From NCBI GenBank assembly GCA_018238625.1, contig JABCSY010000075.1, positions 1 to 19,347 on the forward strand: a stretch of DNA of 19,347 nucleotides. The letters are read 5' to 3'. This document shows positions 1,851 through 19,347 of the stretch, piece after piece; position 1 is the first letter of the stretch; every line of letters begins with the position of its first letter. A program made the position numbers and the translations under genes. This stretch comes from Promethearchaeota archaeon. GTDB lineage: Archaea > Asgardarchaeota > Lokiarchaeia > Sigyniarchaeales > SOKP01. Under the pieces are notes generated by a model. That model was not told where the DNA came from. It saw only the letters and a program-made list of their open reading frames with translations, and did not search any database.

Positions 1851-1885
1851 AATTTATACAATAAATTTTTTTTGAATTGAGTCAT

Positions 1886-1908
1886 ATTTTTATAAAAAAG
1901 GTTATCTT
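1886..1908 (+). promoter_or_regulatory. Candidate archaeal TATA/BRE promoter for the lipS2-cofD run
   Basis: ATTTTTATAAAAAAGGTTATCTT lies about 23-45 nt upstream of the ATG at 1931, in the 120-bp divergent intergenic region. Confidence 0.35.
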
Positions 1909-1930
1909 TAGAGAAAATATTGGTTTAATT

Positions 1931-2932: not shown

Positions 2933-2937
2933 AGATA

Positions 2938-3729
2938 ATGGTAAAAAGTTTGAAAGAATGGAGATTTATTCCTATAGAAGTTAGAAATGGATATTGGAAT
3001 ATGGCATTAGATGAGGCTATTTTAAATGCTGTTATTGAAAAAAGATCTCCTAACACATTGAGGTTTTTTAAGTGGGAACCATCAACAGTGTCAATAGGTA
3101 GAAATCAAAGCCTTTCAAACGAAGTTAACACGAATGTAGCTATTGAAAAGGGTTTTAATGTCGTACGGAGAATTACAGGGGGAGGGGCGGTGTTTCACGA
3201 CAATACTCGCGAAATTACATATTCTATTGTGTGTCCTATAAAATTTCTAGAAGGGCTTAATGCAAAGAAAGTAATTGAGCAGTTCGAAATCTTAGAGGCA
3301 GGAATAATCATGGGTCTAACAAAGTATGGATTACAACCAGAAAAAGGAGTTATACATTGTCCCGCAATTTTTTTAGATGGAAAGAAGTTTTCTGGAAATG
3401 CGCAAATCAGAAAAAGGGGTTTTATCCTCCAACATGGAACGATTTTGTTAGAACTCGATCCAGAACTTATGTATTCAGTTCTAAAAGCACCTCATAACGT
3501 AGGCAAATCGAAAATGGTAAATTCTGTTTTTGCTAAATGTATTGGTATAAAGGAACAATTAAATTATTATAACGAAGAAGATTTTCTATTATCTCTAAAA
3601 GATGGTTTTGAAACCACATTAGGGATAAAATTAAAAGAAGGAATTTATACAGATTATGAATTGGAATTAGCAAAAGAACTTGTTCTACAGAAATATTCGA
3701 ATATTGAATGGTTAAAAAAATATGAATGA
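2938..3729 (+). CDS. Lipoate-protein ligase A / octanoyltransferase family (BPL_LplA_LipB), catalytic domain only
   Basis: Motifs NMALDEAIL, TLRFFKW..STVSIGRNQ, VVRRITGGGAVFHD, GKKFSGNAQ (conserved Lys) and LQHGTIL. It is 263 aa with no C-terminal accessory (LplB-like) domain. Confidence 0.92.
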   Translation: MVKSLKEWRFIPIEVRNGYWNMALDEAILNAVIEKRSPNTLRFFKWEPSTVSIGRNQSLSNEVNTNVAIEKGFNVVRRITGGGAVFHDNTREITYSIVCPIKFLEGLNAKKVIEQFEILEAGIIMGLTKYGLQPEKGVIHCPAIFLDGKKFSGNAQIRKRGFILQHGTILLELDPELMYSVLKAPHNVGKSKMVNSVFAKCIGIKEQLNYYNEEDFLLSLKDGFETTLGIKLKEGIYTDYELELAKELVLQKYSNIEWLKKYE

Positions 3730-4774
3730 AATTAAAGTATTGCTAGAGAAATTTGAAACCGGTACCCAGACTTGGTTAGATTATGAAGAGTTGATAAACC
3801 TGGAATCAAAAGATTTAGAACCTTTTTTTAAACTTGCTTATAATTTAAAAAAGCAAAATTTTAGTAATGAACTTAAAGTTTATATCCCCAATAAAAGGTT
3901 TCCGGCAATAAGTATTACTGGAACCGAATGTTCGTTACATTGCGAACACTGTAATGAAAAATATCTTGATGGAATGATATCAATTTTAAATAATAAGGAC
4001 CTAGAAGCTTTTTTAATGAATTTATCTAATAACGATGGCGTTGGAGCTTTAATTTCAGGAGGATGTCAACCCGATGGTTCAGTACCTTTATTAAATTTTT
4101 TAGATACTATTAAAAAAATAAAGAAGAAAACGAACCTGATAATAAATGTGCACACGGGTTTACTCAGCGAAGAAACGGCTATAAAATTAGCCGAGGTAGG
4201 TGTAGATATCGTATCTTTTGACATAAATATGGATGAGGAAATTATAAAAGATATATATCACTTAGATAAAAATTTAGAGGATTACAAAAGGGCAATAGAA
4301 ATTCTGCAAAAATATAAATTGAATGTTGTTCCTCACATCTGTATTGGTTTACATTACGGAAAACTCCATAAAGAATTAGAATCAATTAAATTTATAAAAG
4401 AATCTGGATTAAATCCTTCCTTAATAGTACTAATTGCTTTAATTCCTCCTAAGAATTCTAAAACAAAATTCATTAGACCAAAACCTATGGACATCGCAAA
4501 AGTTATTTCAATAATTAGATTTATTTTTCCAAGATCAGAAACTTCCCTAGGATGCATGAGACCAAGGGGGGACGTAAAAGTGGAAATAGAGAAATGCGCA
4601 ATTCGAGCAGGTATTACTAGGATTGAAATTCCTTCAAAAAAAACTTTAAAATGGATAAAAGAAGAAGATCCTGACGTGAACTTTAATTTTTTATCCGCGT
4701 GTTGTGCAATTCCAAAAGAATTTGAGAAACTTGCCAGAAGTAAAGCTTCTGATTTAAAGAGCTATCAAATATAA
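3722..4774 (+). CDS. lipS1: Radical SAM protein, two-component lipoyl synthase subunit LipS1
   Basis: Has ISITGTECSLHCEHC (CxxxCxxC), GALISGG, INVHTG, VVPHICIGL and the LipS1 signatures LGCMRP (GC[M/A]R) and C-terminal ACCA (CC). It overlaps the ligase stop by 8 bp (ATGAATGA). Confidence 0.88.
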   Translation: MNEIKVLLEKFETGTQTWLDYEELINLESKDLEPFFKLAYNLKKQNFSNELKVYIPNKRFPAISITGTECSLHCEHCNEKYLDGMISILNNKDLEAFLMNLSNNDGVGALISGGCQPDGSVPLLNFLDTIKKIKKKTNLIINVHTGLLSEETAIKLAEVGVDIVSFDINMDEEIIKDIYHLDKNLEDYKRAIEILQKYKLNVVPHICIGLHYGKLHKELESIKFIKESGLNPSLIVLIALIPPKNSKTKFIRPKPMDIAKVISIIRFIFPRSETSLGCMRPRGDVKVEIEKCAIRAGITRIEIPSKKTLKWIKEEDPDVNFNFLSACCAIPKEFEKLARSKASDLKSYQI

Positions 4775-4801: not shown

Positions 4802-6205
4802 ATGAAAGAAAAAATTAACTTAATCGCGATTAAGGAGATCCCTCTAATAAAAGCTGGCGATAATATTCCCCAAATTATATTTAACGCTTTAAAATTAAAT
4901 AATTTAGCGTTAGAAAATGGAGATATTTTAGTTATTGCCCAAACTATAATTTCAAAAAGCCTTGGAAGGACACAGAATTTAAATCTAATTAAACCAAGTC
5001 AAAAAGCTATTGAAATCTGCAAAAAAATAGCGCCCTTGGCAAAGAAAAATGCTTTACCAGAAAAAAGCCCTGAATTAATTCAAGCGATATTAGATGAATC
5101 TACTGAAGTAATAAAAACTGAGCACGTAATGATTGTTGAGACTCACCATGGTTTTGTATGTGCTAATGCGGGTATTGACAAATCGAATGTTGAAGGTAAA
5201 GATGAAATTACTTTGTTACCCTTGGATTCAGATAAAGAAGCAGAAAAAATTAGAAGTTCACTACAAAGATTAACTGGAAAAAATATTGCTGTAATAATTT
5301 CTGATTCCTTTGGGAGATCGTTCAGGATTGGATCAGTGGGCGTAGCTTTAGGAGTTTCGGGTATAAATCCAATTTTAGATAAAAGAGGGAGTAAAGATTT
5401 ATATGGAAAAGAGTTGCAAAGTACTATTGTGGGCCAAGTTGATAATTTAGCATCTGCAGCTCAATTAATTATGGGAGAGACTGACGAAGGACGGCCAGTT
5501 ATAGTTATAAGAGGGTGCGATTTTAACATAACTGAAAATACTTCAATAGAACAAATCTTAAGAAAAAGAGAGATAGACTTGTTTAGAAACATAAAATTTC
5601 GAGAGAATTTAGAAATTTTATTAAAATCACGAAGAAGTTACAAATTAGAGTTTAGTAATAAAAAAATAGAGGAGAGTGTGATAAAGGAGTGCATTGAAAT
5701 AGCGCGATGGGCCCCAAGCGCACATAATGGCCAATTTTGGCGATATATTATAATGGAACAAGGAAAATTACGTGAAACCCTAATAAAAAATATAAATTCT
5801 AAACTCGGAGAAGATTTGTTTAAAGATGGTAAATCGAGAAATTTTATTGAAAAAAAAATCGAAAAAACAAAAAATCAATTTTTAAGATCTCCTTATTTAA
5901 TCCTTCTATGTTTAGATACACAAGATTTAGAGAAATATTCTGATCAAGAAAGAGAAAAAAACGAATATGTTATGGGAGTACAAAGCATAAGCGCGTCAGC
6001 AACATATTTGCTTCTTGCTTTTGAAGTAAGGGGGTTATCAGCGTGTTGGTATTGTGCTCCTTTATTCACTAAGGAGATTATCAAAAATACATTAAATCTA
6101 CCGTCTTCTTTTATTCCAATGGCATTTTTTACAGTAGGAAAATCGTTAAAGACACAAAAAATACCCAAACGTAAAGAATTGAAAGATATAATTTTTAAAG
6201 TATAA
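4802..6205 (+). CDS. cofE: Coenzyme F420-0:gamma-glutamyl ligase (CofE) fused to a C-terminal nitroreductase-fold domain (FbiB-like)
   Basis: Residues 1-~262 carry CofE motifs GDILVIAQTIISK, HGFVCANAGIDKSN, IISDSFGRSFRIG, DNLASAAQLIMGE and a terminal DLFR. Residues ~268-467 are nitroreductase-like: SRRSYK, ARWAPSAHNGQFW, DLFKDG, QSISASATYLLLA, GLSACWYCAPLF. This resembles the FbiB C-terminal family. Confidence 0.92.
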   Translation: MKEKINLIAIKEIPLIKAGDNIPQIIFNALKLNNLALENGDILVIAQTIISKSLGRTQNLNLIKPSQKAIEICKKIAPLAKKNALPEKSPELIQAILDESTEVIKTEHVMIVETHHGFVCANAGIDKSNVEGKDEITLLPLDSDKEAEKIRSSLQRLTGKNIAVIISDSFGRSFRIGSVGVALGVSGINPILDKRGSKDLYGKELQSTIVGQVDNLASAAQLIMGETDEGRPVIVIRGCDFNITENTSIEQILRKREIDLFRNIKFRENLEILLKSRRSYKLEFSNKKIEESVIKECIEIARWAPSAHNGQFWRYIIMEQGKLRETLIKNINSKLGEDLFKDGKSRNFIEKKIEKTKNQFLRSPYLILLCLDTQDLEKYSDQEREKNEYVMGVQSISASATYLLLAFEVRGLSACWYCAPLFTKEIIKNTLNLPSSFIPMAFFTVGKSLKTQKIPKRKELKDIIFKV

Positions 6206-6227
6206 AAAACTAATTATGTGAACAAAT

Positions 6228-7163
6228 ATGAACGATAATTATTATTTAATACTCGCTGGAGGCGTTGGAGCCGCAAAATTCATTAAAGGTCTAGCAAATG
6301 TTATTGATCCCGCGTTATTAAAGATTGTTATTAATACTGGTGACGATATCGAATTATTCGGTTTAAAAATGTGTCCCGATATAGATATTATTACTTATAC
6401 TTTAGCCAATATAGTGGACAAAGAAAAGGGATGGGGTTTTCAAGATGAAACTTTTAATTGTTTAAGTATTTTAAAAAAGTATTACGGTTTTGAATGGTTT
6501 AACGCTGGAGATAAAGATTTAGCAACCCATATTTATCGTACCGATTTATTTAAAAAAGGGTTTAATAAGGCAGAAATAACCTCAATAATTTGTGAGAAAC
6601 TTGGAATTAAATCTCAACTTATCCCTATGTGTAATGAAGACGTACAAACATTTATTACAACGGATTTTAAAAAAATGCATTTTGAAGAATATTTCATTAA
6701 ATATCAATGTGAACCTAAAATTATTGATGTACAATTTCAAGGCATTAAAAAAGCAAGGCCAGTGAATAACATTTTGGATTATATTAAGAAAGCCAAGAAG
6801 GTTTTAATTTGCCCTTCGAATCCAATAGTGTCAATAGGAACAATATTAGGTGTAGAGGGAATTAAAGAATCATTAAAAAATGTTAAGCAAAAAGTAATAG
6901 CAATTAGCCCTATTATAGAAGGGGCAACTGTACAGGGTCCAGCTGATAAATTAATGAAATACTTTGGAATAAAAGTTTCTTGCGTTGGCGTAGCAAAATA
7001 TTATCGTGAGATTATTGGTCATTTTATCATTGATAAAAAGGATTGTAAATTGAAATCGGAAATAGAAAAATTGGATATACCCACTTATTGCTTTGATACC
7101 ATGATGGTATCCTTAGATAAAAAGAAAGAACTGGCTCAGTTTGTAATAGATATTAAAACATAA
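6228..7163 (+). CDS. cofD: 2-phospho-L-lactate transferase (CofD/FbiA), F420 biosynthesis
   Basis: Motifs LAGGVGAAKFIKGL, INTGDD, CPDIDIITYTLA, WFNAGDKDLATHIYRT, MHFEEYF, ICPSNPIVSIGTIL, AISPII and GPADKLM. It is next to cofE. Confidence 0.95.
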   Translation: MNDNYYLILAGGVGAAKFIKGLANVIDPALLKIVINTGDDIELFGLKMCPDIDIITYTLANIVDKEKGWGFQDETFNCLSILKKYYGFEWFNAGDKDLATHIYRTDLFKKGFNKAEITSIICEKLGIKSQLIPMCNEDVQTFITTDFKKMHFEEYFIKYQCEPKIIDVQFQGIKKARPVNNILDYIKKAKKVLICPSNPIVSIGTILGVEGIKESLKNVKQKVIAISPIIEGATVQGPADKLMKYFGIKVSCVGVAKYYREIIGHFIIDKKDCKLKSEIEKLDIPTYCFDTMMVSLDKKKELAQFVIDIKT

Positions 7164-7172
7164 AAATTTGTC

Positions 7173-8621
7173 TTAAGTACTTTGTGTTGGTGCTTGCTCA
7201 ATTTCAACTTCTTTTTCCTCTTCAACTTCCTCTTTTTTAACATAATCACCTACTGAAGCCAAAATTTCTTTAATTCGTCCTTCTTGTTGAAGTCGAATAA
7301 GTAAATTCCTATGTTTTATAAAAGAAATTACTTTTGAGATTACAGGGAATGTTAACATTAATGGAACCAATAAAATTACTATAATTTCAGGAGAATACAT
7401 AACAACGCTCTCAACGATAGCGGGAGGTAATTGAAAAATATGTTCCATGAACCATTTTGGATGAATGATAATATAACTGATAATTATTAATAACCCAACT
7501 CGGAAAACAAAATTAATGATTGTTGAAACCACAAGACTTTGTGGTTTGGGAGCTGAAGATTTGGCCGTTAAAGTATCTTGAGCTTCAATATCTTCTTGGA
7601 AAAGGCGATGAATGTATCTTCCAAGCCTTCTAGTTTTTGACGCCGCTGTTACCAACTTTTTTTCTTCTTCTTCTAATTTTTTTTTCTCAATCATTTCTTT
7701 TATATAAGAAAATCTTTCTCCAGTTTTCGCAAAAAAACCGCTGATACCCATCGTTGTTTTATCTTCAATCTCTAACTCTTCTCTTCTTTTTTTAGCTTCT
7801 TCTTTTATTTTATCGACATTTGCAGTTATATAATAGGATTCGCTTTGTAATACCGTCAATTGCGCCTCTAATCGATTGCTTCTTTCTAAAGACGGTTTAG
7901 TAACTGTGTATGTATAATTTATTTGAAAAGCCATTTCTAAATAAATATAAGATGTTATTGCGAGAAGTATAACTGGACTTGCAAAAAATTGAAATATATC
8001 ATCAATAGGTATCTCCTCTAGAGAAATATCAAGAGGATACGGTAAATCTTCCAAATATTGAATGCTTATATTAAATAAATCCAGCATATCCTTAAATCCA
8101 AACACCATAAGAGGAATTACTAACATAAGAATTATAGCCCCAACGACTATAAGATCGTCCTTTGGGTTTGTTTTAAGGAAAGCCTTAACTGCGTAAATTA
8201 TTGAAATTATAATTAAGATTTGAAATGCTATTAAATAAATATTCTCATTAAAAACAGCGAATTCTTGCCCGAGTAAATCAGGAATTTGACTAATGTTTGG
8301 AGTTGTCCCATTAGGAAATGTAAACCAAAGACTTAATAGACCTCGAAAAAAATGATCTAACAATGTAAACATATGTGGTTGCGCTGCTAAAAAAATAAAG
8401 GTTGAGATAAGAACGCTAAATATAGCAATGCCGTACGCTGCTGCAAAAATAAGATAAGTTAACATATTTTTTAAACTGGTAAAAAATGCAGTTAATACAA
8501 GTTCTCCACTTGAAGTTGTAACAACTTCGTCAAAATGAAATATTGAGAAAAAAATAGTTAGAATCCATACAAAAATTAACGCGTTGAGAATTTTTAAAAT
8601 TAAAATGTAATATCTTGTCAT
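7173..8621 (-). CDS. Hypothetical multi-pass membrane protein with a central highly charged helical/coiled-coil region
   Basis: 482-aa ORF with about 5-6 hydrophobic segments in residues 1-235, an E/K/R-rich helical stretch (~240-355, e.g. IKEEAKKRREELE, IEKKKLEEEEKK), two more hydrophobic segments and an acidic tail. It starts 3 bp after the DUF58 gene stop. No family recognised. Confidence 0.8.
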   Translation of the reverse strand: MTRYYILILKILNALIFVWILTIFFSIFHFDEVVTTSSGELVLTAFFTSLKNMLTYLIFAAAYGIAIFSVLISTFIFLAAQPHMFTLLDHFFRGLLSLWFTFPNGTTPNISQIPDLLGQEFAVFNENIYLIAFQILIIISIIYAVKAFLKTNPKDDLIVVGAIILMLVIPLMVFGFKDMLDLFNISIQYLEDLPYPLDISLEEIPIDDIFQFFASPVILLAITSYIYLEMAFQINYTYTVTKPSLERSNRLEAQLTVLQSESYYITANVDKIKEEAKKRREELEIEDKTTMGISGFFAKTGERFSYIKEMIEKKKLEEEEKKLVTAASKTRRLGRYIHRLFQEDIEAQDTLTAKSSAPKPQSLVVSTIINFVFRVGLLIIISYIIIHPKWFMEHIFQLPPAIVESVVMYSPEIIVILLVPLMLTFPVISKVISFIKHRNLLIRLQQEGRIKEILASVGDYVKKEEVEEEKEVEIEQAPTQST

Positions 8622-8624
8622 TTT

Positions 8625-9953
8625 TTAATACGCACTCCCTTTTTTCTTCGCTTCCATATAAGTAGCCAAAACTTGATTCATCATATCATCTGGACCAACA
8701 GTTAAAATATTAACACCTAAGTGTCTTACCTCTTGTTTAAATTTTAGGATGTGTTCCATCATTTCTTCGCTAATCGCTTCAGCAAGAGCTTTATCTGTTG
8801 ACGACAAATCAATTTCATGAATTTCAAACCAAGGGCTAAACGGATTGATAATTATAATTGTATGATTAAATGGAACTAATTTTCGAATTGCGTGTCCTAT
8901 TTCTTTAACATCTGCTTCTAAATCTGAAATAACAAATATTAAGCTACGTTTTTGGAATCGTCTGTTAAAAAAATCCATTGCTTCAACCATTCTTAACTTT
9001 CCTTGTGGTTTGACTTTTGCAACAAAATCTAATACTTGATAGAATTGATCATCTCCACTTCTGGGTTTTAAGAATTGTAGATTTTTCTTATCTGAAAAAG
9101 TAAATACACCCACATTATCTTTACGAGTTAAAGCCACTTTAGTTAACAGCATACAAGCTCTGATCGCGTATTCGAATTTTGTGTTTTCTATTGCACCACC
9201 TGCCATAGAACTCGATGAATCTACCAATATCATGATCGTTACGTCTCTTTCACTTTCAAATTCCCTTACTATTAACTTCTGGGTTCGAGCGCTCGCTTTC
9301 CAATCAATGAGTCTAAATTGATCTCCAAACACATACCTTCTCATTCCATAAAATTCTGAGCCAAGGCCCTTCTGTTTTGATCTCTGTAGCCCATAATTTA
9401 AAGTTAAAGAGCGTTTAGAACCTAAAATTTCTATTCTTTTTATATCTTCGTAAGGAGGATAAACCAATATATCTGAAACACTGTTAGGCACAACTCTTTC
9501 CACCGAATTAAAACCTAATCTATCTTTAACCGTTACAGATAGTGGACCTATAGGGTATTCACCCCTCACTTTTGGTTCCAGCACATAACTAAATTTTATT
9601 ATATTTTTTGGTCCTATTCTTGTAGAAATAAAATTTTCCCCCAATACTAATCTAAAAAGTTGAGGGTTGTAATAATCCCTTATTTCCAGAAAATCAAAAC
9701 TATTTTTCCCAGTATTCTCAATTACAACCTTTATATGAACAAAATCGTCTTTAAATACTTTTTCTTTTTCCAGTTCTCTATGTACTCGCAACTCTTCTAT
9801 GTTCATTTGGTAATAGAAAAGGGGTAAGCTTACAACGGTACTAAATAGCAAAAGTATAGCAAAATAAATCAAAAAATAATTCTCAAATGCAAATCCAGCT
9901 GTTAGAAAAAAAACTGAAAATAGAATTAAAATTCTTCCTTTTCCTCCTAACAT
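8625..9953 (-). CDS. DUF58 (COG1721-type) vWA-domain membrane protein, MoxR partner
   Basis: Has two N-terminal TM helices, an Ig-like region (RGEYPIGP..V.DRLG...ILVYP), the DUF58 signature GSEFYGMRRYVFGDQFRLIDWKASAR..KLIVREFESE, a MIDAS-like LVDSSSSM, and ISDL. Confidence 0.92.
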   Translation of the reverse strand: MLGGKGRILILFSVFFLTAGFAFENYFLIYFAILLLFSTVVSLPLFYYQMNIEELRVHRELEKEKVFKDDFVHIKVVIENTGKNSFDFLEIRDYYNPQLFRLVLGENFISTRIGPKNIIKFSYVLEPKVRGEYPIGPLSVTVKDRLGFNSVERVVPNSVSDILVYPPYEDIKRIEILGSKRSLTLNYGLQRSKQKGLGSEFYGMRRYVFGDQFRLIDWKASARTQKLIVREFESERDVTIMILVDSSSSMAGGAIENTKFEYAIRACMLLTKVALTRKDNVGVFTFSDKKNLQFLKPRSGDDQFYQVLDFVAKVKPQGKLRMVEAMDFFNRRFQKRSLIFVISDLEADVKEIGHAIRKLVPFNHTIIIINPFSPWFEIHEIDLSSTDKALAEAISEEMMEHILKFKQEVRHLGVNILTVGPDDMMNQVLATYMEAKKKGSAY

Positions 9954-10010: not shown

Positions 10011-10991
10011 TTAAATAGGTATTGGTATATCTTCAACAATGTTCTTTATCACAGATTTAACATCTAGACCTTCTAATTCCGCTTCAGGCTTTAATAAAAT
10101 TCGGTGATTCAAAGCGGGAATAATTAATGCGCGTACATCATCTGGAGTTACATATACCCTTCCTAAAATTGCTGCTCTTGCTTTTGAGCATTTCATTAAT
10201 ACAAGCGATGCACGTGGTCCACATCCAAGAGCTATCTGAGGATGGTTCCGAGTTTTTATTACAATGTCTCTAATGTATTTTAAGATTCTAATATCTATGT
10301 AAACCATATTCATTAGTTTCTGAGCAGCAAGTATTTCTTCTCCGCTCGTTATTGCCGTTACTGATGGAGACTCTCCAGAGATTTGTCTTCTCATTATATC
10401 TACTTCTTCTTCTTGACTAGGATAATCTAACCAGACTTTCATAATGAAACGGTCTAGTTGTGCCTCTGGTAAAGGATATGTCCCTTCCATTTCCACCGGA
10501 TTTTCAGTAGCAACTACCATAAAGGGTTTATCAAGTGGAAGTGTATCTCCTTCTATAGTAATTTGTCTTTCGGCCATAGCTTCGAGTAGAGCTGCTTGTG
10601 TTTTAGGAGCGCTTCGATTAATCTCATCTGCTAAAACTATATTTGCAAAAAGGGGTCCTTTTTGAAGTACAAAAGCTCCTTCATTCTGATCAAAGATTTT
10701 TGTCCCAGTTATATCTGAAGGTAAAAGATCAGGCGTAAATTGCACCCTTCGAAACGAGATTCCAAGCGATTGCGCAAAAGTTTTTGCCATTACGGTCTTT
10801 CCCAATCCGGGAACTCCTTCAAGGAGAACGTGACCATTCACTAACAAAGCAATGAAGAGTTGTTGTAAAATTTCTCCGTATCCAACAATGACTCGGCTTA
10901 CTTCTGAAAGAACCTCTTGGGCAATTTCTCTAATAGGTTCCACATTTAATTCTTCTCTTTCGTAATATTTAGCTTTATTTGGGGCTTCCAT
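10011..10991 (-). CDS. moxR: MoxR-family AAA+ ATPase
   Basis: Motifs GHVLLEGVPGLGKT (Walker A), RVQFTPDLLPSDITG, LADEINR (Walker B), KTQAALLEAMAE, ATENPVEMEGTYPLPEAQLDRF, GPRAS, YVTPDDV and LNHRI. Confidence 0.96.
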   Translation of the reverse strand: MEAPNKAKYYEREELNVEPIREIAQEVLSEVSRVIVGYGEILQQLFIALLVNGHVLLEGVPGLGKTVMAKTFAQSLGISFRRVQFTPDLLPSDITGTKIFDQNEGAFVLQKGPLFANIVLADEINRSAPKTQAALLEAMAERQITIEGDTLPLDKPFMVVATENPVEMEGTYPLPEAQLDRFIMKVWLDYPSQEEEVDIMRRQISGESPSVTAITSGEEILAAQKLMNMVYIDIRILKYIRDIVIKTRNHPQIALGCGPRASLVLMKCSKARAAILGRVYVTPDDVRALIIPALNHRILLKPEAELEGLDVKSVIKNIVEDIPIPI

Positions 10992-11082: not shown

Positions 11083-12807
11083 TTATATGTTATTAACCAC
11101 CCATTCCATTTCAAAAAATAGGTTTTCAAAATCTTGTTCATTTTTTACTTTCATTCTTCCTTCTTTAATTGCTATAATTCTATCCATAAATTTAGAAATC
11201 CTTCTAATCTTAAGTTTTGTTATTTTTGGGTCTTTCGCAATCACCATTGCCATTACATTTTGAGTGGTAATTTTACGACCACTTAAAAGGGCATTTAATT
11301 TTCGCTCTAATCTCCTATAGAGTAACGTCAGAGCCTTTCCATATCTGCTTTTTTCTCTATACCACTCAATTTTTTCGGCAAAAAAGGACGAAGTTCTAAA
11401 TCGCTCTCTTTCTTCTTCAGTTTCTTGTTCTTTTGCCTTCTTTTTTTCCTTCTTTTTGTCTTTTTTAGGTAAATACTTCTTCATTGAATATATCGCTAAT
11501 AGCGGATAAATCCACGCTGTAATTGGATTCGTGCTCAAATGAACAATATATTGAGTGATAAACCCAAAGATTCCTGCTGAAGTAAAATCTCTTGAATATT
11601 CTGGTCGTATGTGAGCTTCATCGAAAATTACAACCCAATCTTCTTTCGATTCGCCATACGTTAACCAATCTATAATATTTTTACCAAACTGGGAATTATC
11701 ATATCCAGGTTCATTAATCAATTCGTTATTAAATAAGCTAGCATCAGCTGATAAGAAAACTCTAGAATTTCCAGCTTCTTTAGACATAAAAACCCCTTGT
11801 GAATAACCACCAAGTGGCCACTTAGCAGGAAATCCGGGGAGCATTCCGGCTACTAAACTTAAATCAACATAATCATCGTCAAAATTATACATATGGTCGT
11901 CATTTTTGTCAACATATCCATAATCAGAACTAGAGCCAACCAAATCCCATCCAAAATAGGAAATAAACGGACCTCCAACAACACAAGATGCTTGTGAGAG
12001 AATTACGTCGCTAATCCCAACAGTAGTAGGATGGGGGTTGAATGACCTTATTACGGGAAAATCTGGGCGCGTATCGTATGAGGCGTTATCACGTAGTATA
12101 CCGTTAGGGAATATCGTAACAGGCACGGCTCCTTGAAGATCTGGGTCTATAGCACTTGCGATAAAAATTTCCCATAAGAGCGTGCTCGTGCTTCCATGGT
12201 CGTGACATATAAACAACGAATTCTTTATATCACTATCAAAAAAATCAATGAAATATGGGATCTCAAATACGGGGTTGTAAAATTGATTTGGTCCTAATAG
12301 GATCAACAAAATAGATTTATTTAGTCTTTCTGTGGCGCTCAAGCTGGATTGAATAGTCATTACATCATAACCTTCAAGTTCAATAGTACGCTTAAAATCG
12401 GATGCACCATTCCAATTACTATTATACACAGAAAAGTTTTGGTCATTTTTCCCTGAATCGATTATTGAACCAAATAAAGGTATAAACGTAAAGATAAAAA
12501 TCACTAAAAATAAAGCCTCTTTATACGCAGTCCCCGTTTTCACTTTTTTACGAGATTGTATTTCTCTTGATTTTTGAATAGTTATATTTCTAATAAAAAT
12601 TACTAAGCCAAATCCTAAAAATATCGCTCCAATGTAACAAACAAGAGGAATATAACTTATAAAAAACGGGAGAGCTTCACCCGTATAAATTTCGATGAAA
12701 TTAGTAATAAAAATACCATAGACTACTAGAAAAACCGTGAAAAACGCTATGATTATGCCCTTTGAAAAAGTAACATTACTTCCTGATGGTTTTCCAACAC
12801 TCGACAT
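11083..12807 (-). CDS. DUF4350-type membrane protein with a C-terminal cytoplasmic helical domain
   Basis: Three N-terminal hydrophobic segments are followed by FSVYNSNWNGASDF, LILLGP, VFLSADASLFNNELI...N..F..NIIDWL and VIFDEAH, motifs typical of archaeal DUF4350/GATase1-like domains. Then come a further TM, a polybasic run and a helical tail. It lies directly upstream of moxR. Confidence 0.75.
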   Translation of the reverse strand: MSSVGKPSGSNVTFSKGIIIAFFTVFLVVYGIFITNFIEIYTGEALPFFISYIPLVCYIGAIFLGFGLVIFIRNITIQKSREIQSRKKVKTGTAYKEALFLVIFIFTFIPLFGSIIDSGKNDQNFSVYNSNWNGASDFKRTIELEGYDVMTIQSSLSATERLNKSILLILLGPNQFYNPVFEIPYFIDFFDSDIKNSLFICHDHGSTSTLLWEIFIASAIDPDLQGAVPVTIFPNGILRDNASYDTRPDFPVIRSFNPHPTTVGISDVILSQASCVVGGPFISYFGWDLVGSSSDYGYVDKNDDHMYNFDDDYVDLSLVAGMLPGFPAKWPLGGYSQGVFMSKEAGNSRVFLSADASLFNNELINEPGYDNSQFGKNIIDWLTYGESKEDWVVIFDEAHIRPEYSRDFTSAGIFGFITQYIVHLSTNPITAWIYPLLAIYSMKKYLPKKDKKKEKKKAKEQETEEERERFRTSSFFAEKIEWYREKSRYGKALTLLYRRLERKLNALLSGRKITTQNVMAMVIAKDPKITKLKIRRISKFMDRIIAIKEGRMKVKNEQDFENLFFEMEWVVNNI

Positions 12808-12867: not shown

Positions 12868-13248
12868 CTAAAAACTTACTGTTGGCAATGTCTTTCCTGT
12901 TATATCGTTGTATAAATTTGAAAATAGTTGAACTGTAAAATTTAGCTCTTTATTTGTTGGTTCTATGCCACCATATATAATATCCTCGATTTTTTTAATA
13001 AAAGGGTATATGGATTCTGGCTTTTGATCTAACTCGGTAACACATCTAATCGCATATTCTCGTATCGTTTGGTGAGCTAATCTTGGTTTTTTGAATTTTA
13101 ATGTTATTATATCGTTGTAAATAAGATAGATATATGCTATTGCTTCTTTTGCTCTATTAGTATCAACTAGTACTTTTGCATTCTCAAATTTTTGCTTAAT
13201 ATCTACTTCAGGTTCTTGCTCTTTTTTTGATTTTTTCTTTTTTGCCAT
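12868..13248 (-). CDS. Small soluble helical protein, DUF4129-like, paralogous to the C-terminus of the upstream gene
   Basis: The ATG at 13248 (MAKKKKSKK) is preferred to the TTG at 13260. R...QTIREYA...F...E.IIYG resembles the DUF4129 pattern (R..xeT.rEy...F....YG). It aligns visibly to the C-terminus of 13352..14929. Confidence 0.75.
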   Translation of the reverse strand: MAKKKKSKKEQEPEVDIKQKFENAKVLVDTNRAKEAIAYIYLIYNDIITLKFKKPRLAHQTIREYAIRCVTELDQKPESIYPFIKKIEDIIYGGIEPTNKELNFTVQLFSNLYNDITGKTLPTVSF

Positions 13249-13351
13249 ATTCTTTACCAATTTGTGTAATTTTTAAATTAATTAATTCATACTTATTTTT
13301 GGTTTTAAATTTTTTTCTACTTTTTTTTTATATATTTTTTACTTCTATTTT

Positions 13352-14929
13352 TTAAAAATTTAATACAAAATTGTAACCTGTTAATTCGAAATATATAGGT
13401 GAAAATAAATTAATTGTGTTATAAAATTCATTATCTGTAATTTGAAACGGTTTAGCATAAATAATTTCCTCAACTTTTTGTATAAAAGGATAAATTGTGG
13501 TTGGGGATAGCTTTAATTTTTTAACAGAAATTATAGCAAAATCTCTTATAGTTTCATTATCACTTCGAGTTCTTCCAAACTTAGCATTTATTAAATCCAA
13601 ATAAATTGCATTAAATAGGTAGGACAGGGATTCTTCTAATCTTCCTGTATCCTTAAGAATTTTCAGGTTTATTATTTTACTTTCAAGAGGTAAATTTACG
13701 ACTTTAGATAGCTTATCTTGCTTTTTATAGTAACGATATCCATAAAATCCTAATCCCCCAAGGACAATTGCCAAGATTGGAATAAACACAGAGAAAAAAA
13801 CTAAAAAGGGAGCAGCATCTTGGGGTGGTGTAAGCACTGTTTGTGCCGCTTGAACATCAAAGAAGTGCGTTGTAATAATATTTTTCCCGAGATTGTCAAC
13901 TAATTCTATAGTGATAAAACTTAATCCGGCCGAAGCATTAAGCGGATGAGTGTAAGAAAATTCCCCATTTGATTCTGTTTGGACTGTATTTATAGGAATT
14001 CCATTATAAACAATCCTTATTGTTCTATTATTAATTCTAAGATTAGGATCTGTTCTAGAGACTACTTGACCTGAGATTATTAAATCAGATGATGCCCTAA
14101 TGGTCGTAGGTAAATCCCAAATACAAGAAATATTAGCAAATAATTTTGTGTCGGATAAAAAAATTTCAGTATAATTTATTTCTGGGGGCGATTCAAACGT
14201 GAGTTTTAAATCCAAATCATCTATGCCAACATCTGGAATAGATATGCTTTGAATTAACCCTACACCATCTGTCAATATTAGATTACTATCAATAACAGTA
14301 GGACCATCGTACCAATAATAATTAATGGATGCAGATGGAATTCCTGTTCCGTTAAAAAATCTTAAATAACCATCTAAATCAAAATTAAAATCTTCTCCAG
14401 TTAATTTTGGAGTAAATGGTTCGTTAATGTTAAAAAAAGAAGTAGTATTTACATCTATCACATAATAGGTACGATATTCAACGGTATTAGGTGGAGAGAG
14501 AACAGTTGCTTCTATTTTGTGTGATGAATAAATATTTAGAGAAGGATCAATTGTATAAATTATTTCAAAATCTCCATTAAAATCAGTTGTATCGTTAATA
14601 CTAGAGTAAACAACATCGTCAACCTCTATTGCAACAACATAACCTTGTTTTCCTGTATCATTAATCCTATTAAAGAGTCTTCCTTGTATACTAATTATTG
14701 TATTATGAGTAAATCGAGAGTTGTTTATTCCTGTAGGATTTGTTAGATCTAATGTTGCCCAAATACCTGAACTCTTAATATACTGATCTTGAAAGTGAGT
14801 AGTATGATAATTTGATTCTCGAAGATTTATCATAGCTGGAAATAAGATGAAGATACAAATCAATATGAGAATTTTATACTGAATTTTTTTATTTGGTTTT
14901 AAAAAATTTACAATTCTCATAATCATCAT
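13352..14929 (-). CDS. Cell-surface protein: signal/anchor helix, about three Ig-like beta domains, TM helix, cytoplasmic DUF4129-like domain
   Basis: N-terminal basic plus hydrophobic segment (KKIQYKILILICIFILFPAMI). Three beta-rich units share G[RYQ][LV]...T[DE]xxG. TM is FLVFFSVFIPILAIVLGGLGFYGY followed by RYYKK. C-terminus has RSDNETIRDFA...IYPFIQKVEEIIYA. The exact start Met (14929/14926/14920) is uncertain. Confidence 0.8.
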   Translation of the reverse strand: MMIMRIVNFLKPNKKIQYKILILICIFILFPAMINLRESNYHTTHFQDQYIKSSGIWATLDLTNPTGINNSRFTHNTIISIQGRLFNRINDTGKQGYVVAIEVDDVVYSSINDTTDFNGDFEIIYTIDPSLNIYSSHKIEATVLSPPNTVEYRTYYVIDVNTTSFFNINEPFTPKLTGEDFNFDLDGYLRFFNGTGIPSASINYYWYDGPTVIDSNLILTDGVGLIQSISIPDVGIDDLDLKLTFESPPEINYTEIFLSDTKLFANISCIWDLPTTIRASSDLIISGQVVSRTDPNLRINNRTIRIVYNGIPINTVQTESNGEFSYTHPLNASAGLSFITIELVDNLGKNIITTHFFDVQAAQTVLTPPQDAAPFLVFFSVFIPILAIVLGGLGFYGYRYYKKQDKLSKVVNLPLESKIINLKILKDTGRLEESLSYLFNAIYLDLINAKFGRTRSDNETIRDFAIISVKKLKLSPTTIYPFIQKVEEIIYAKPFQITDNEFYNTINLFSPIYFELTGYNFVLNF

Positions 14930-14952: not shown

Positions 14953-17900
14953 TTAAGGCTCCCTATATACTTCTATTTCAAAAAATTCTACATAATAATA
15001 GTCAGGTGCACTGAAATTGTCTTCTGGGTAAAATGTGACCCAAACTTCGGCATTGTCAGGCCAATTACCAACAAGTAAAGTAATATTGAAGAACCCACTA
15101 ATATCTGTGACCCCAGTAGCTGTTGCTAGCACATTACCTATACTATCTCTAATCGTAACATTTACCTCCATAAAAGCCATGGCAGTACCGTTATCCCAGG
15201 TTAAGAATCCGTAAACATATAAATTATCACCCTCATAAAATTGATCTTTAACAATTTGAGTATCATAATTTCCATTTATATTAATACCAGCAGTAATATT
15301 TATTGAGATTAACGTACTTATTGAGATTTCTGCATAATTTGTCAGAGAGATTCCAAAATCATTCATACTTCCCGTAAAATTAATAAGAATGTAATAATTG
15401 CCTTGAGGGCAACTTAAAAATATTCCACTATTATCGTATAAATAATTTCCACCAAAAATAGTTCTAAATTGAGGACCGTTTAAGTTTAAATAACCAGAAA
15501 CATCTACAAAGGAAGCATCCAATAAGATAAGTCCTATTATTAACCCATCTAGATTCGTTCCGTTCTGTTGAAGAATTCCATCAACATTAAACTGATGGAA
15601 ATTTCTCTGGATAACATTTCTATCCAAGTTAATAGAAATATCAATAGTTTCATTAATAACAACATAAGTTGTGTTAAAAGCACTAAATGTATGATAATTA
15701 ACTCTAAATCTTATCAAACCTGCATGTAAATCGTTTGTAGAAAGATTAAATTGAACGAAACCAGTTGAAGAACCTGGAAACATGTATGAATCTAGAAGGA
15801 TATTAGTGTAATCGTCATAGATGTATACAGTTCTAGTATCAAATGACTCGACATGAATTAGCTGTACTTGAACATGGATTATCTCACCAAAATTGTATGT
15901 TTCTGGCGGATTTTCATTGTCATAAAAGGGGAGTGTTGGATTACCCTCAACAGATAATAGTATATCGAGGTTTTCAGGATCAATTACTTTAAGCTCATGA
16001 TAACCGTTTGTAATATTATTGAAATTACTAAAACTACCTAAATAAAAATCATGTTCATTATACTGATTATTTGGTGCTGAATATCTAAAGATCCCACCAA
16101 ATTCGATTTGAATTGTGTAATTTTTATCTGGTGTTGAGCTTGAAACTGAATAAGTTAAATCAAATTCTCCAGATTCGTCTAACCATAATGTTCCTCCATC
16201 TAGAGAAAGATAATAGACTTCTGTAGGTCCATCATACAAATGCACATGAATTCTAGCGTATTTAATTGGAATACCGTTAGTTGAATCGTTAACATATCCA
16301 CGAAGGTTAAAGGTTCTACCGGTCGGACCGCTTCTTAAAATTTCTCGAGGTTCTGGACCACTTTCAAGATCTACAATTATAGGAGTATCATATATGAAAT
16401 ATGAATAATTATTGTTTGATCCCCACTTAGCATAAATTAAATGGGGTCCAGCGACAGTAGAAGATCCAGTCGAATATATTAGTTGAGTAAATCCATTTAT
16501 TGTTTGGGCTGAACCAATCGTTATTCCTTGAGTTACATCATAAAAATTTATCCATTCTCCATCCCCAATCGGAACACCCCCCCATTCAAGATAAACAGAT
16601 AAATTTATTTTGCCATTCTGGTTGATAACAGGTTGATTATAATCGTCAAAAGTAGTACCATTTATCCAAAAATTAAATGTTAAAGTAGTTGGGGTCATTA
16701 CCATTAGTTCATTCATAAATGCCGAGGAAGTATTAATGTAAGGTAAATTAAAAAAGGTGGGATATTCGGGATGCCAAGTATAATCAATAGTTCCATTAAA
16801 ATCAAGTCTTAAGGTATAATTTCCTGTTGGTGTATTTGATGCAACTTCAAAATTTAAATTAAAATATCCGTTAAAATCTGTCCATATAGTATCGCTTGGT
16901 GTTAAATAAAGGGAATAATCCGTTCCACCTTTTAGTAATTTTAAATTTAATCGTGAAAATTTAATAGGGTTATTGTTAATACTATCTAAAATTTCTCCTT
17001 CAATGTTAAATATTGTATTACTGGCTCCAACGGAAGTACGATTAATTTCTCGGGGCGTTGGTCCAGATAAAATGTTAATTGTTGGTTCTTCATTTAATAT
17101 AAAATAAGTATAATTTTCTTCAATTCCTATTTTAGCATATAATAGGTTCGGACCTGTAGTAATAGAATTTCCTACAAAATAGTTAAGAGTTGTTATTCCA
17201 TTAACATTTGTCGTGTTCGAGCCTATTTGAATACCTCTCGTGTAATCGTAAAAGGTAACATCTTGATTAGCTAATGGATAGTTAGTTTCGTTTACGACTT
17301 TAGCCTTTAGAATAACTGTCGATGTTCTGTTTACAACGGGAGAATTGGGGATATCTGATGGAACATCGTTGATATAAAACCATACTTTTTTAACAACACC
17401 TTCAGTTACATTAAAATCCATCCTGTTACTTGAATCGTTTACAAATCCCACAGCATAAGCCGTAAAATACCAACTTCCGTTAGTATCTACTCTTAATTCA
17501 TAATTTCCTACTGAAACAGAAGGATCAACATTAATATCAACATTAAAATCTCCGTTTAAATCGGTAGTTGTATATGTGATATCAAAGGGAGGAGTTCCAA
17601 CTCGAGTATTTGTTCCTTTTTGAAGTAATATAAATTCTAAAGTTGTTCCGCCAACTCGTTGATTATTAATTGGGTCAATCACATACCCTTGAACATTTGT
17701 CATTGTATCTATCGATATATTTACTTCTTGTGGATTAATATTTTGAAGATTGACTTGAATATCTCCATATACGGTATATTCAGTGGTGTCGTTAACATTA
17801 GGACTAAATTGAGCAAACATATAATGGGGTCCAACAACTTGTGTGTCGTCAATATTAATTAAGAGTGAAGCTTCTCCATACGAATTAGTATCTATTTGAC

Positions 17901-19347
17901 CAAGATTTTGGTAGGAAGTTAAATCGTAGAAAGCAATTGGCATCCCTTCAACTGGAACACCATCGAGAGTTAAAGTTGCAGTTAAGTTTGCTACATTCCC
18001 TCTATATCCTGCTGAAAAGTTAGAGTTTAAAATTAACGAATAGTTTGCTAAACTAGGAGGGTTTCCTCCGTAATTATCGTAATAGACATCCATTTGCACC
18101 CAGAGTCCATCTCCAGAGATGTCAGTAGGAACATAAACTTCTGCCCAATTATACATGTTTTTATATTTTATCGCAAAAGTATCTCTTCCTTCAGTATTGT
18201 CAAAAAATTCTTGAATTGTAAAACTATTGAATCCGTCAACAAAACGGCTTGCTACGCCAAAAGCTCGCGAAAAAGCACAGAAGGCAGAGGCAAAATCGGC
18301 CCAATAGCCAATTCCTTGCTCACAAAACCACTCCACCTGATCATAACCTTGTGGAGCTGGATTGTATTGACTTGGGTCTGTAATTATTGCAAAATTATAT
18401 TGCAGATAATTTCTAATCTTGTCAGCAACTATAAAAGCGTTATCGGTATTAACAATTATTCCATCTAAAACATTATAATGAAAAGCAAAATCATCGTTGT
18501 TATTTATATATACATCAGTGGTATCCCCTTTTAATTGTAAATATTTGTTTTTTATAGGGTCGGGAGTGTATGTTGGTTCAACCGCAATTGCGTCTATTTC
18601 TGAGCTTGTTGGCAAATCTAAACCAAACAACTCGTAAGTCATATTTACGTCTTCAGCAGCACTAAAACTTATATCCAAAGTTGAACAATTAAAATCGTCT
18701 TTATATAAGGAAGGAGAACCTTGAAGGTTGTTTGCTTGGATACTATTTTCCATAATAAAAGGAGTAGGAAACAGTGAAGGTATAACCATCGAGTTTATAC
18801 CAACATCAGGGGACAGTGGCATCTTTAACATTAACAGATCTTTATCAAAATGGTATGAAAAATAATCACTGTAAGAATAAAAATTATTTAACTGTTTAGC
18901 AGCAGTTGAATGCCATCCATCACCGGTATATTCGTCAAAACATTCATATTTCCATAATTTTGTTGTCATTTCGTTAAAATCGTCATAGTCATATAATCTA
19001 AATACCTCAACTTCAGAAAACATAAGAGAGGCAAGAGTTTGGGAGTAATTACCTAAATCTAAATTGTCAATATCTCCATCAAACATATCTTGTAATGCGT
19101 CTAATAAGTCTTGTAATTGGTCTTGGGTTAAATTAAGGTCTGAAAATTGATCTTGAAAATCTGACATATTATAAGGGAAAGGAGGCATTATCAAAACAAC
19201 ATCTTCATATTTTGCTCTGTCCAATTCGTAGCTAGGAAGGGGCCTCTGGGTCCCCCAGAGAAGGCTAAACAAGAAGACTGAAAATGCAAATGAGGCAACC
19301 AATAAAGCGGCTGTAAAAATGATTTTAACTAATCGTTTTTTATTAAT
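14953..19347 (-). CDS. Giant membrane-anchored transglutaminase-like (TgpA/COG1305-type) protein with degenerate active site and tandem Ig-like repeats; 5'-truncated by window edge
   Basis: The frame is open to 19347 (INKKRLVKIIFTAALLVASFAFSVFLFSLLWG, a basic plus hydrophobic anchor). LWKYECFDEYTGDGW resembles the pre-TGase YWR..YD.YDG..W motif. The TGase core reads DKIRNYLQ, DQVEWF...GYWADFASAFCAFSRAFGVASRFVDGF...NWAEVYVP...GLWVQMD. About 1000 aa of beta-rich repeats follow. Confidence 0.85.
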   Translation of the reverse strand: MNKKRLVKIIFTAALLVASFAFSVFLFSLLWGTQRPLPSYELDRAKYEDVVLIMPPFPYNMSDFQDQFSDLNLTQDQLQDLLDALQDMFDGDIDNLDLGNYSQTLASLMFSEVEVFRLYDYDDFNEMTTKLWKYECFDEYTGDGWHSTAAKQLNNFYSYSDYFSYHFDKDLLMLKMPLSPDVGINSMVIPSLFPTPFIMENSIQANNLQGSPSLYKDDFNCSTLDISFSAAEDVNMTYELFGLDLPTSSEIDAIAVEPTYTPDPIKNKYLQLKGDTTDVYINNNDDFAFHYNVLDGIIVNTDNAFIVADKIRNYLQYNFAIITDPSQYNPAPQGYDQVEWFCEQGIGYWADFASAFCAFSRAFGVASRFVDGFNSFTIQEFFDNTEGRDTFAIKYKNMYNWAEVYVPTDISGDGLWVQMDVYYDNYGGNPPSLANYSLILNSNFSAGYRGNVANLTATLTLDGVPVEGMPIAFYDLTSYQNLGQIDTNSYGEASLLINIDDTQVVGPHYMFAQFSPNVNDTTEYTVYGDIQVNLQNINPQEVNISIDTMTNVQGYVIDPINNQRVGGTTLEFILLQKGTNTRVGTPPFDITYTTTDLNGDFNVDINVDPSVSVGNYELRVDTNGSWYFTAYAVGFVNDSSNRMDFNVTEGVVKKVWFYINDVPSDIPNSPVVNRTSTVILKAKVVNETNYPLANQDVTFYDYTRGIQIGSNTTNVNGITTLNYFVGNSITTGPNLLYAKIGIEENYTYFILNEEPTINILSGPTPREINRTSVGASNTIFNIEGEILDSINNNPIKFSRLNLKLLKGGTDYSLYLTPSDTIWTDFNGYFNLNFEVASNTPTGNYTLRLDFNGTIDYTWHPEYPTFFNLPYINTSSAFMNELMVMTPTTLTFNFWINGTTFDDYNQPVINQNGKINLSVYLEWGGVPIGDGEWINFYDVTQGITIGSAQTINGFTQLIYSTGSSTVAGPHLIYAKWGSNNNYSYFIYDTPIIVDLESGPEPREILRSGPTGRTFNLRGYVNDSTNGIPIKYARIHVHLYDGPTEVYYLSLDGGTLWLDESGEFDLTYSVSSSTPDKNYTIQIEFGGIFRYSAPNNQYNEHDFYLGSFSNFNNITNGYHELKVIDPENLDILLSVEGNPTLPFYDNENPPETYNFGEIIHVQVQLIHVESFDTRTVYIYDDYTNILLDSYMFPGSSTGFVQFNLSTNDLHAGLIRFRVNYHTFSAFNTTYVVINETIDISINLDRNVIQRNFHQFNVDGILQQNGTNLDGLIIGLILLDASFVDVSGYLNLNGPQFRTIFGGNYLYDNSGIFLSCPQGNYYILINFTGSMNDFGISLTNYAEISISTLISINITAGININGNYDTQIVKDQFYEGDNLYVYGFLTWDNGTAMAFMEVNVTIRDSIGNVLATATGVTDISGFFNITLLVGNWPDNAEVWVTFYPEDNFSAPDYYYVEFFEIEVYREP
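15290..18050 (-). repeat. Four diverged ~225-240-aa two-domain protein repeats (Ig-like) within the giant protein
   Basis: Recurrent anchors are FYDLT (~17928), FYDYT (~17249), FYDVT (~16542) and IYDDYT (~15818), followed by GPHYMFAQ / GPNLLYAK / GPHLIYAK / GLIRFRV and GNYEL / GNYTL / KNYTI / GNYYI. The repeat is visible at protein level and the boundaries are approximate. Confidence 0.8.

Follow-up and report, generated by a model that had tools for sequence, protein, structure and literature searches.

The 19,347-nucleotide stretch of contig JABCSY010000075.1 from a Promethearchaeota archaeon (GenBank assembly GCA_018238625.1), hereafter called the window, encodes a giant surface protein whose transglutaminase-like (TGL) domain has tryptophan and tyrosine where the catalytic cysteine and histidine should be. 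The Cys-His chemistry of this domain has been lost; its core is conserved, its fold is of the TgpA type, and its gene belongs to a conserved cluster of seven genes. With the triad abolished, the fold residues kept and the domain under purifying selection, it is best described as a pseudoenzyme. Our preferred reading, held with moderate confidence, is that it is a putative binding or scaffold module without catalytic activity, placed close to the membrane at the base of an immunoglobulin (Ig)-repeat surface protein and encoded in a conserved envelope cluster. The gene lies on the minus strand (14953..19347), has an open 5' end at the window edge and comprises 1464 codons and a stop. Residue numbers count from the first in-frame codon of this open reading frame (ORF); the identical database protein, P0002, has a full length of 1476 amino acids.

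The catalytic columns of the transglutaminase domain

The domain matches Transglut_core (PF01841) over residues 306-420 (18088..18432, minus strand) with E = 5e-12 and 46.5 bits against a cut-off of 23. On the same strand, W349 (TGG, 18301..18303) stands in the catalytic Cys column within the motif GYWADFASAF, Y399 (TAT, 18151..18153) in the His column within MYNWAEVY, and the triad Asp is kept as D420 (GAT, 18088..18090) within GLWVQMD. A first interpretation made from the DNA letters and their translation, the sequence-only reading, had placed the three codons and motifs at these positions, and the minus-strand sequence and its translation agree. It had also assigned the three residues to the Cys, His and Asp columns of transglutaminases, and on this Pfam, profile-profile alignment to bacterial TgpA and an AlphaFold model concur.

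A hidden Markov model of the family core was aligned to 263, and later to 355, collected proteins; canonical relatives show C and H in columns 349 and 399, for example in GYCTYFASA and AHAWCEIY. A profile of 50 family members compared with the PDB pairs W349 with the Cys of GFCAHYA in Pseudomonas aeruginosa TgpA (6g49, E = 0.028). Single-sequence phmmer of the domain against the PDB gave chance-level matches only (E >= 0.41, a mycobacterial hydrolase), and the family profile was needed instead. Alignment of the 50 family members to 20 bacterial TgpA-type proteins with hhalign (Prob 99.1, E = 1.1e-18, 178 columns) pairs W349 with an invariant C537, Y399 with an invariant H581, and D420 with D597.

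The AlphaFold2 model of residues 40-480 has a pLDDT of 83.4 and a pTM of 0.81, with blocks of at least 90 across the core. In it W349 opens a helix (model 310-323), Y399 belongs to the long strand that comes next (model 359-368), and D420 comes directly after the following strand (model 375-380); this predicted placement is the papain/transglutaminase arrangement. The best PDB match of the model by Foldseek is the periplasmic domain of TgpA, 6g49 (E = 8.8e-12, TM(target) 0.66, 339 columns), followed by 3isr, a putative cysteine protease from Cytophaga. The domain thus has both the sequence match above cut-off and the papain-like core fold of a Transglut_core member. The Cys-His-Asp/Glu triad of an active transglutaminase is absent from it.

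Conservation of the altered site

Relatives were collected by a word-indexed search, which returned 225 at E <= 0.001. The best 120 of these are 50-100% identical over residues 100-480, and their source names are Lokiarchaeota/Promethearchaeota, Hermod-, Hod- and Thorarchaeota; from them come 121 cluster sequences, that is 119 relatives and the window's own protein twice. A second set was taken from genomes, namely the best 80 of 91 confirmed relatives, species-representative and all titled as Asgard metagenome-assembled genomes, making 81 sequences with the window. Neither the 121 cluster sequences nor these 80 genome loci and the window have a Cys at 349 or a His at 399. In the cluster sequences the Cys column is W in 109, Y in 7, F in 4 and S in 1; in the genome set it is W in 67, Y in 9, F in 3, S in 1 and P in 1. 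The His column is Y in 119 and F in 2 of the former, and Y in 80 (55 TAT, 25 TAC) and F in 1 of the latter. For the Asp column the counts are D 118, E 2 and N 1 in the clusters, and D 77 (68 GAT, 9 GAC), E 2, N 1 and a gap in 1 among the 81.

W401 and E403, close to the His column, are present in 81 of 81 sequences, and both GAA and GAG are used for the Glu. Synonymous variation at the Tyr, Asp and neighbouring Glu codons (TAT/TAC, GAT/GAC, GAA/GAG) points to purifying selection. Among 49 full-length proteins, the stretch from W349 to E403 is the most conserved 60-residue block of the whole protein, with a mean top-residue frequency of 0.76 and an entropy of 1.03, while the frequency in the other blocks is 0.52-0.71. 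Both marks of a pseudoenzyme, loss of the catalytic residues and purifying selection on the domain, are found here. The sequence-only reading had argued for a selected pseudoenzyme and not for decay or error, and had asked whether Trp and Tyr are conserved across the clade; its argument is upheld by the absence of the catalytic residues, the synonymous codons and the conserved core block, and no close orthologue with Cys or His was found among these sequences.

A sequencing or assembly error, or a decaying pseudogene, can be given practically no credence. Each altered codon is only one base away from Cys (TGT/TGC) or His (CAT), as had been remarked before and as is true on the minus strand, and this speaks for an error. 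However, 80 independently assembled genomes and 119 protein clusters show the same state, and these sites combine synonymous variation with a constant amino acid. The ORF, described earlier as intact over more than 4.3 kb, is indeed uninterrupted over its 1464 codons and runs off the window end.

Compared with relatives that have Cys-His-Asp, the family with Trp, Tyr and Asp in these columns (W/Y/D) is unchanged at G347, F352, S354, R361, R368, G372, W401, A402, E403, P407, W416, Q418 and D420. Its own changes are C to W at 349, H to D/E at 351, A to Y at 395, H to Y at 399, A to N at 400 and V to C at 357. Residue 351 is, in the relatives, a His two positions after the catalytic Cys, and in the W/Y/D family it is Asp or Glu. 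The former active site has turned into a cluster of aromatic and acidic residues, which is compatible with a binding site but is no proof of one.

Could the domain still be an enzyme?

The domain could remain catalytic through a shifted Cys (C342 or C357) acting with H290, or through Tyr399 and Asp420 as a nucleophile/base pair. At least one of C342 and C357 is kept in 80 of 80 sequences, D420 is retained, and TGL domains with Ser for Cys have been proposed as possible serine peptidases (PMC3495828). However, C342 is replaced by Leu in 8 of 81 sequences and C357 by S, T or V in 9 of 81, H290 is missing in 16 of 80, and the three residues occur together in 49 of 80. No Cys or His column exceeds 90% within residues 1-540, the best ectodomain His being H290 with 80%. 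In addition, C357 sits two helical turns inside the helix that the nucleophile should cap, and Trp is incapable of the role of nucleophile. A substitute Cys-His dyad is therefore unlikely, C342, C357 and H290 each being variable among genomes, and we regard a surviving enzyme of either kind as very improbable. The suggestion of the sequence-only reading that nearby Cys residues might rescue activity is accordingly not sustained: about 10% of the genomes lack C342 and about 10% lack C357, and no His of the domain is conserved above 80%.

Layout of the surface protein

The protein consists of an N-terminal membrane anchor, a TgpA-like ectodomain with the dead transglutaminase core, and then about 1000 residues of Ig-like repeats. 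The transmembrane anchor, a single hydrophobic helix, is predicted from the translation at about residues 10-32 (19252..19320, minus strand). Since Lys/Arg residues precede this helix, the protein past it should be outside the cell; it may thus be type-II-anchored, with its bulk extracellular. N-x-S/T sequons are enriched (37 against 20.6 +/- 4.5 over 200 shuffles). The TgpA-like ectodomain covers residues 40-480 (17908..19230, minus strand) and comprises a beta-rich N-domain and the transglutaminase core, as delimited with AlphaFold2 and Foldseek. Residues 481-1464 (14956..17907, minus strand) form Ig-like/macroglobulin-like repeats, for which Pfam CarboxypepD_reg scores above its cut-off and MG2 and Big_1 below theirs; relatives bear Big_1, Big_3_5, MG2 and bMG3. 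Pfam finds no TgpA_N (DUF3488) in the window protein at E <= 1, in keeping with a count of one N-terminal hydrophobic helix, and no DUF4129 within it. The orthologues of loci L001-L080 fall into two length classes, of about 1250 and about 1480 residues, and the short form is without approximately residues 661-840 of the window protein.

Relatives and evolutionary history

When 1.84 billion representatives were searched exhaustively, 214 matched at E <= 0.001. Besides the W/Y/D family, the matches include families with 28-35% identity. In some of these P, A or Y stands in the Cys column and Y or D in the His column, others retain the His beside S, A, G, D or P in the Cys column, and a few relatives have Cys-His-Asp intact; the sister-family proteins with P, A, S, G or D in the Cys column are found within P0162-P0218. 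One of them, P0162, matches part of TgpA_N with 31.3 bits. A search started from a Cys-His-Asp relative (P0202) recovers a Freyarchaeota/Jordarchaeia family of about 1220-1240 residues, and then bacterial proteins with TgpA_N and TGL domains, in part with DUF4129. All 15 Freyarchaeota/Jordarchaeia relatives examined have Cys-His-Asp, and they carry a DUF4129 above the Pfam cut-off fused at the C-terminus.

A quick IQ-TREE phylogeny of 89 rows was made from 29 W/Y/D sequences (28 random ones and the window's own), 30 intermediates, 21 Frey-type proteins and 10 bacterial ones as outgroup; the catalytic columns were left in, the search was short and some branches are long, so that it should be read with care. 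The W/Y/D family is a single clade (SH-aLRT 100), nested in a clade of 40 rows (SH-aLRT 99) of which none has Cys or His, and the sister clade of 37 rows (join support 85) contains the Freyarchaeota Cys-His-Asp proteins. The loss is therefore old and common to several paralogous families, each of which fixed the residue in the Cys column separately. This fits the proposal of two independent substitutions made in the sequence-only reading: Tyr in the His column is common to sister families, while the Cys column differs by family (W, P, A, Y).

Among the collected proteins there are also giant relatives with two to four tandem transglutaminase domains (P0179, P0278-P0280, P0282 and P0194-P0261). 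In these an intact Cys-His-Asp domain is often followed by a Pro-His-Asp domain, and one class of 2000-3200 residues has HEAT repeats in addition to three or four TGL domains.

A seven-gene cluster

The TGL gene is the first of seven genes on one strand, in the order TGL protein, g525, g130, g574, MoxR, DUF58/vWA and g482; the intergenic gaps after the TGL gene are, in order, 23, 91, 60, 91, 57 and 3 nucleotides in the window. MoxR, vWA and TGL genes thus lie on the same strand in a single predicted operon, with three genes between TGL and MoxR. The topology of the products was read from the sequences, without a predictor.

The g525 protein (13352..14929, minus strand) has a signal or transmembrane segment, an Ig-like ectodomain, a second transmembrane segment and a DUF4129-like domain. 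This last domain should be cytoplasmic because RYYKKQDK follows the last transmembrane segment. Residues 258-523 align to the C-terminus of P0202, which comprises its last Ig domain, a transmembrane segment and DUF4129 (E = 2e-17), and in P0202 this region contains a Pfam DUF4129 above cut-off. Most invariant columns of g525 are found in residues 415-525, the C-terminal domain being far more conserved than the ectodomain. g130 (12868..13260, minus strand) is a stand-alone cytoplasmic DUF4129-like protein and a paralogue of the g525 C-terminus, with 41% identity to its residues 415-518 (E = 2e-22); Pfam DUF4129 is found in 3 of 20 g130 orthologues, always under the cut-off. g574 (11083..12807, minus strand) encodes a membrane protein with a DUF4350-type ectodomain: the window protein reaches 19.8 bits against a cut-off of 30.4, and 17 of 20 orthologues match at E <= 0.01, 5 of the 20 above the cut-off.

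The MoxR-family AAA+ ATPase (10011..10991, minus strand) matches AAA_3 (E = 1.1e-64) and AAA_lid_2 (E = 9.6e-24), and the DUF58/vWA protein (8625..9953, minus strand), which has an N-terminal transmembrane hairpin, matches DUF58 (E = 6.3e-34) and VWA_2 (E = 1.8e-11). Because of this hairpin the body of the DUF58 protein should be cytoplasmic, beside MoxR. The last gene, g482 (7173..8621, minus strand), encodes a polytopic membrane protein with a charged coiled-coil loop, of a family seen only in Asgard archaea. It has no Pfam or NCBIfam match, and the two Atlas clusters nearest to it are from Promethearchaeota and have no family assigned. No NCBIfam model matches the TGL protein, g525, g130, g574 or the DUF58 protein either.

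The cluster is seen in genomes labelled Promethearchaeota/Promethearchaeia, Hermod-, Hod-, Thor- and Odinarchaeota, again among the best 80 of 91. Of the loci with enough downstream sequence, g525 is present in 62 of 62, g130 in 56 of 57, g574 in 51 of 53, MoxR on the same strand in 50 of 53 and DUF58 in 48 of 50; g482 was found in 48 loci. In locus L059 MoxR is on the opposite strand, between g574 and DUF58. MoxR is 77-98% and DUF58 74-96% identical across loci labelled as different Asgard groups, far above the other genes of the cluster.

Upstream of the TGL gene, outside the window, several other genes recur, as read at positions 1-10000 of L001 and L013. Sharing its strand is a 293-residue coiled-coil protein (74 of 80 loci), and the opposite strand has a Ras-family small GTPase (61 of 80). 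The others are a histone-deacetylase-family protein (73 of 80), MCM (63 of 80), which in L013 contains intein and LAGLIDADG insertions, and a HEAT-repeat protein.

Comparison with known systems

TgpA of P. aeruginosa (PA2873, 6g49) resembles the window protein in its beta N-domain, its core fold and the location of the domain outside the membrane. An association with DUF4129 is also common to both, and across prokaryotes in general TgpA-type proteins go together with MoxR and DUF58 (PMC3495828). TgpA, however, retains the full triad, in contrast to W/Y/D, and shows transglutaminase activity in vitro (PMC3507681); it combines a multi-helix TgpA_N with a fused DUF4129, whereas the window protein has one N-terminal anchor and about 1000 residues of Ig repeats, and the DUF4129-like domains are on two separate genes next to its own. 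The window protein therefore descends from the TgpA family but lacks three TgpA features, namely the triad, TgpA_N and the fused DUF4129. The Freyarchaeota/Jordarchaeia proteins (P0202, P0264-P0277) are Asgard proteins with the same N-domain, TGL core and Ig repeats, at 28-31% identity to the window protein. Unlike it, they keep Cys-His-Asp and have a transmembrane segment and DUF4129 in the same polypeptide.

Dead transglutaminase-like domains with binding or scaffolding roles are known from Rad4/XPC, Cyk3, CC2D2A/MKS6, erythrocyte band 4.2 (EPB42) and FBXO21 (PMC3495828, PMC10318531, PMC4758748), and inactive TGL domains are reported to act as peptide binders (PMC3495828). As these accounts present them, they share with the window domain a retained fold and the loss of triad residues, but they are eukaryotic and intracellular and have usually lost the Cys only. 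The window domain is archaeal, extracellular and TgpA-type, and, unlike the eukaryotic dead domains, has exchanged both Cys and His for aromatic residues.

Two published systems resemble the cluster. The three-gene MoxR-vWA-YebA/TgpA system of Zhang and Aravind (2012) was proposed to be an ATP-dependent protease (PMC3495828), and the archaeal arCOG01314 (DUF4350)-MoxR-vWA-Ig protein system of Makarova, Galperin and Koonin (2015) was predicted to act in secretion or membrane remodelling (PMC5898192). The Asgard cluster has the same building blocks on one strand: a MoxR AAA+ ATPase, a DUF58/vWA protein, a putative DUF4350 membrane protein, Ig surface proteins and a TGL protein. Of the parts of the arCOG01314 system, MoxR, vWA and Ig proteins are present, and the DUF4350 match of g574 is the one under cut-off given above. 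The arCOG01314 description in the text and Table 2 of PMC5898192 includes no TGL component, whereas the Asgard cluster has a TGL protein, and beyond both published systems it has two DUF4129-like proteins and the Asgard-only polytopic protein. The seven-gene cluster is an Asgard version of the known MoxR-vWA-TgpA/DUF4350 systems. Since its TGL triad is lost, the published model of an ATP-dependent protease cannot apply to the Asgard variant.

The seven products are probably parts of one envelope complex. Outside the cell would be the TGL protein, the Ig ectodomain of g525 and the DUF4350 ectodomain of g574, and inside it the two DUF4129-like domains, the MoxR ATPase and the DUF58/vWA protein. 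The remodelled site (W349, D351, Y395, Y399, N400 and D420) may bind a partner on the cell surface, either a peptide or a glycan, as the sequence-only reading had also suggested for the former active site. MoxR and the vWA protein may assemble or remodel the envelope complex from inside via the membrane-spanning DUF4129 and DUF4350 proteins. Such a role would differ from the protease feeding proposed for the catalytic TgpA/YebA systems. A prediction of the complex between the TGL ectodomain (40-480) and the g525 ectodomain (40-372) had a score of 0.01 (mark 0.32), which counts neither way on binding.

Binding module or structural relic

Judged by the cytoplasmic genes, the genome nearest to the window is that of locus L049, in which MoxR is 97.5%, DUF58 96.2%, g130 93.8% and g482 90.8% identical to the window. 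Its TGL protein, by comparison, is 49.7% identical and of the short form (about 1250 residues, without window residues ~661-840). In g525 the ectodomain is 31-53% and the cytoplasmic C-terminus 96-97% identical, and the switch is sharp and lies at the transmembrane segment. Locus L010 is 98.5% identical to the window in g130 and 93.8% in g574, but 66.9% in the TGL protein and 60.7% in g525. The extracellular module seems either to have been swapped by recombination or to be evolving very fast. L049 keeps W/Y/D, and the best-conserved blocks of its TGL protein are those of residues 301-420 (61-63%). That W/Y/D and the core are kept in L049 despite this divergence is what speaks most strongly for a continued need of the dead site.

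Alternatively, the domain may be a structural relic, a folded spacer or anchor under the Ig-repeat stalk, in which Trp and Tyr plug the old cleft for stability and nothing is bound. The residues common with active relatives are mostly fold-defining, and the Cys column can be W, Y, F, S or P in members of the family and P or A in sister families. However, a relic does not explain well why the core is the most conserved block while other extracellular parts diverge fast, nor why family-specific polar and aromatic changes are grouped around the old site (D/E351, Y395, N400). The TGL domain of Cyk3, moreover, is described as functional without its Cys, and its remnant triad residues as needed for function (PMC4758748). 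We consider a relic rather unlikely, although it deserves some weight.

Several observations weigh against a binding or scaffold module in a dedicated envelope complex. Large aromatic residues in the former cleft could just stabilise the fold, and W349 varies, 2 of 81 sequences having S or P in its place. The DUF4129 and DUF4350 calls on the window proteins are under Pfam cut-offs and rest on orthologues and transitive homology. In two complete chromosomes the cluster stops early, after g130 in L041 and after a truncated g525 of 317 residues in L042, with no MoxR part nearby in either. The synteny also extends upstream to unrelated genes, and conserved order alone therefore overstates functional linkage. 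Finally, the glycoproteome of a cultured Asgard archaeon is reported to contain few glycoproteins (PMC11284389), which weakens the case for glycan binding in particular; the words 'transglutaminase', 'MoxR' and 'DUF58' are absent from two text supplements of that paper. The association of MoxR, DUF58/vWA, DUF4350, DUF4129 and TgpA-type proteins is known independently in other prokaryotes (PMC3495828, PMC5898192) and is also seen here in domain fusions.

Other genes in the window

A leucyl-tRNA synthetase fragment (2-1810, minus strand) matches the bacterial-type equivalog TIGR00396 with 861 bits against a cut-off of 548, and stays under the archaeal model (164.8 against 648.5 bits) despite the Asgard origin of the contig. 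On the plus strand, 1877-4774 contains a cluster of LipS2, a lipoate-protein ligase and LipS1, that is the two-protein radical-SAM lipoyl synthase, with both LipS models above their cut-offs. It is followed at 4802-7163, also on the plus strand, by genes of F420 biosynthesis: a CofE glutamyl ligase fused to a nitroreductase/FbiB-C-terminal-like domain, and then CofD. Scans of the window for tRNA and Rfam families gave no match.

Significance for the Asgard envelope

Dead TGL domains are already known; in the literature outside subscription journals and closed supplements we found no description of this Asgard family, its W/Y/D signature or the seven-gene cluster, and they are apparently undescribed. 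The Asgard envelope is reported to have no ordered S-layer and many unidentified surface proteins (PMC9834061). The presence of the cluster in 80 species-representative Asgard genomes makes it a candidate core component of this envelope. A more specific proposal, which we consider speculative and improbable, gives the W/Y/D domain the role of a lectin-like or peptide-binding head, placed at the base of one of the 'complex surface proteins' that cryo-tomography has shown on Loki-type Asgard cells, with the seven-gene cluster assembling or remodelling the S-layer-free envelope, for example in protrusions or syntrophic contact. If this were true, the swapping of the extracellular module between near-identical clusters would reflect pressure from partners or viruses, and an Asgard-wide pairing of MoxR with a dead TGL protein could be the prokaryotic counterpart of the pairing of dynein with an inactive TGL domain (CC2D2A) proposed for the origin of cilia.

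More generally, the family suggests that the widespread MoxR-vWA-TgpA system can run without TGL catalysis, which argues against a purely proteolytic model of these systems. The Cys-His-Asp proteins of Freyarchaeota and the W/Y/D proteins of Loki-type archaea offer a natural experimental pair. Among known prokaryotes, Asgard archaea are the nearest relatives of eukaryotes. Pseudoenzymes are common, but the W/Y/D domain marks what may be a core, phylum-wide envelope system in the archaea nearest to eukaryotes.

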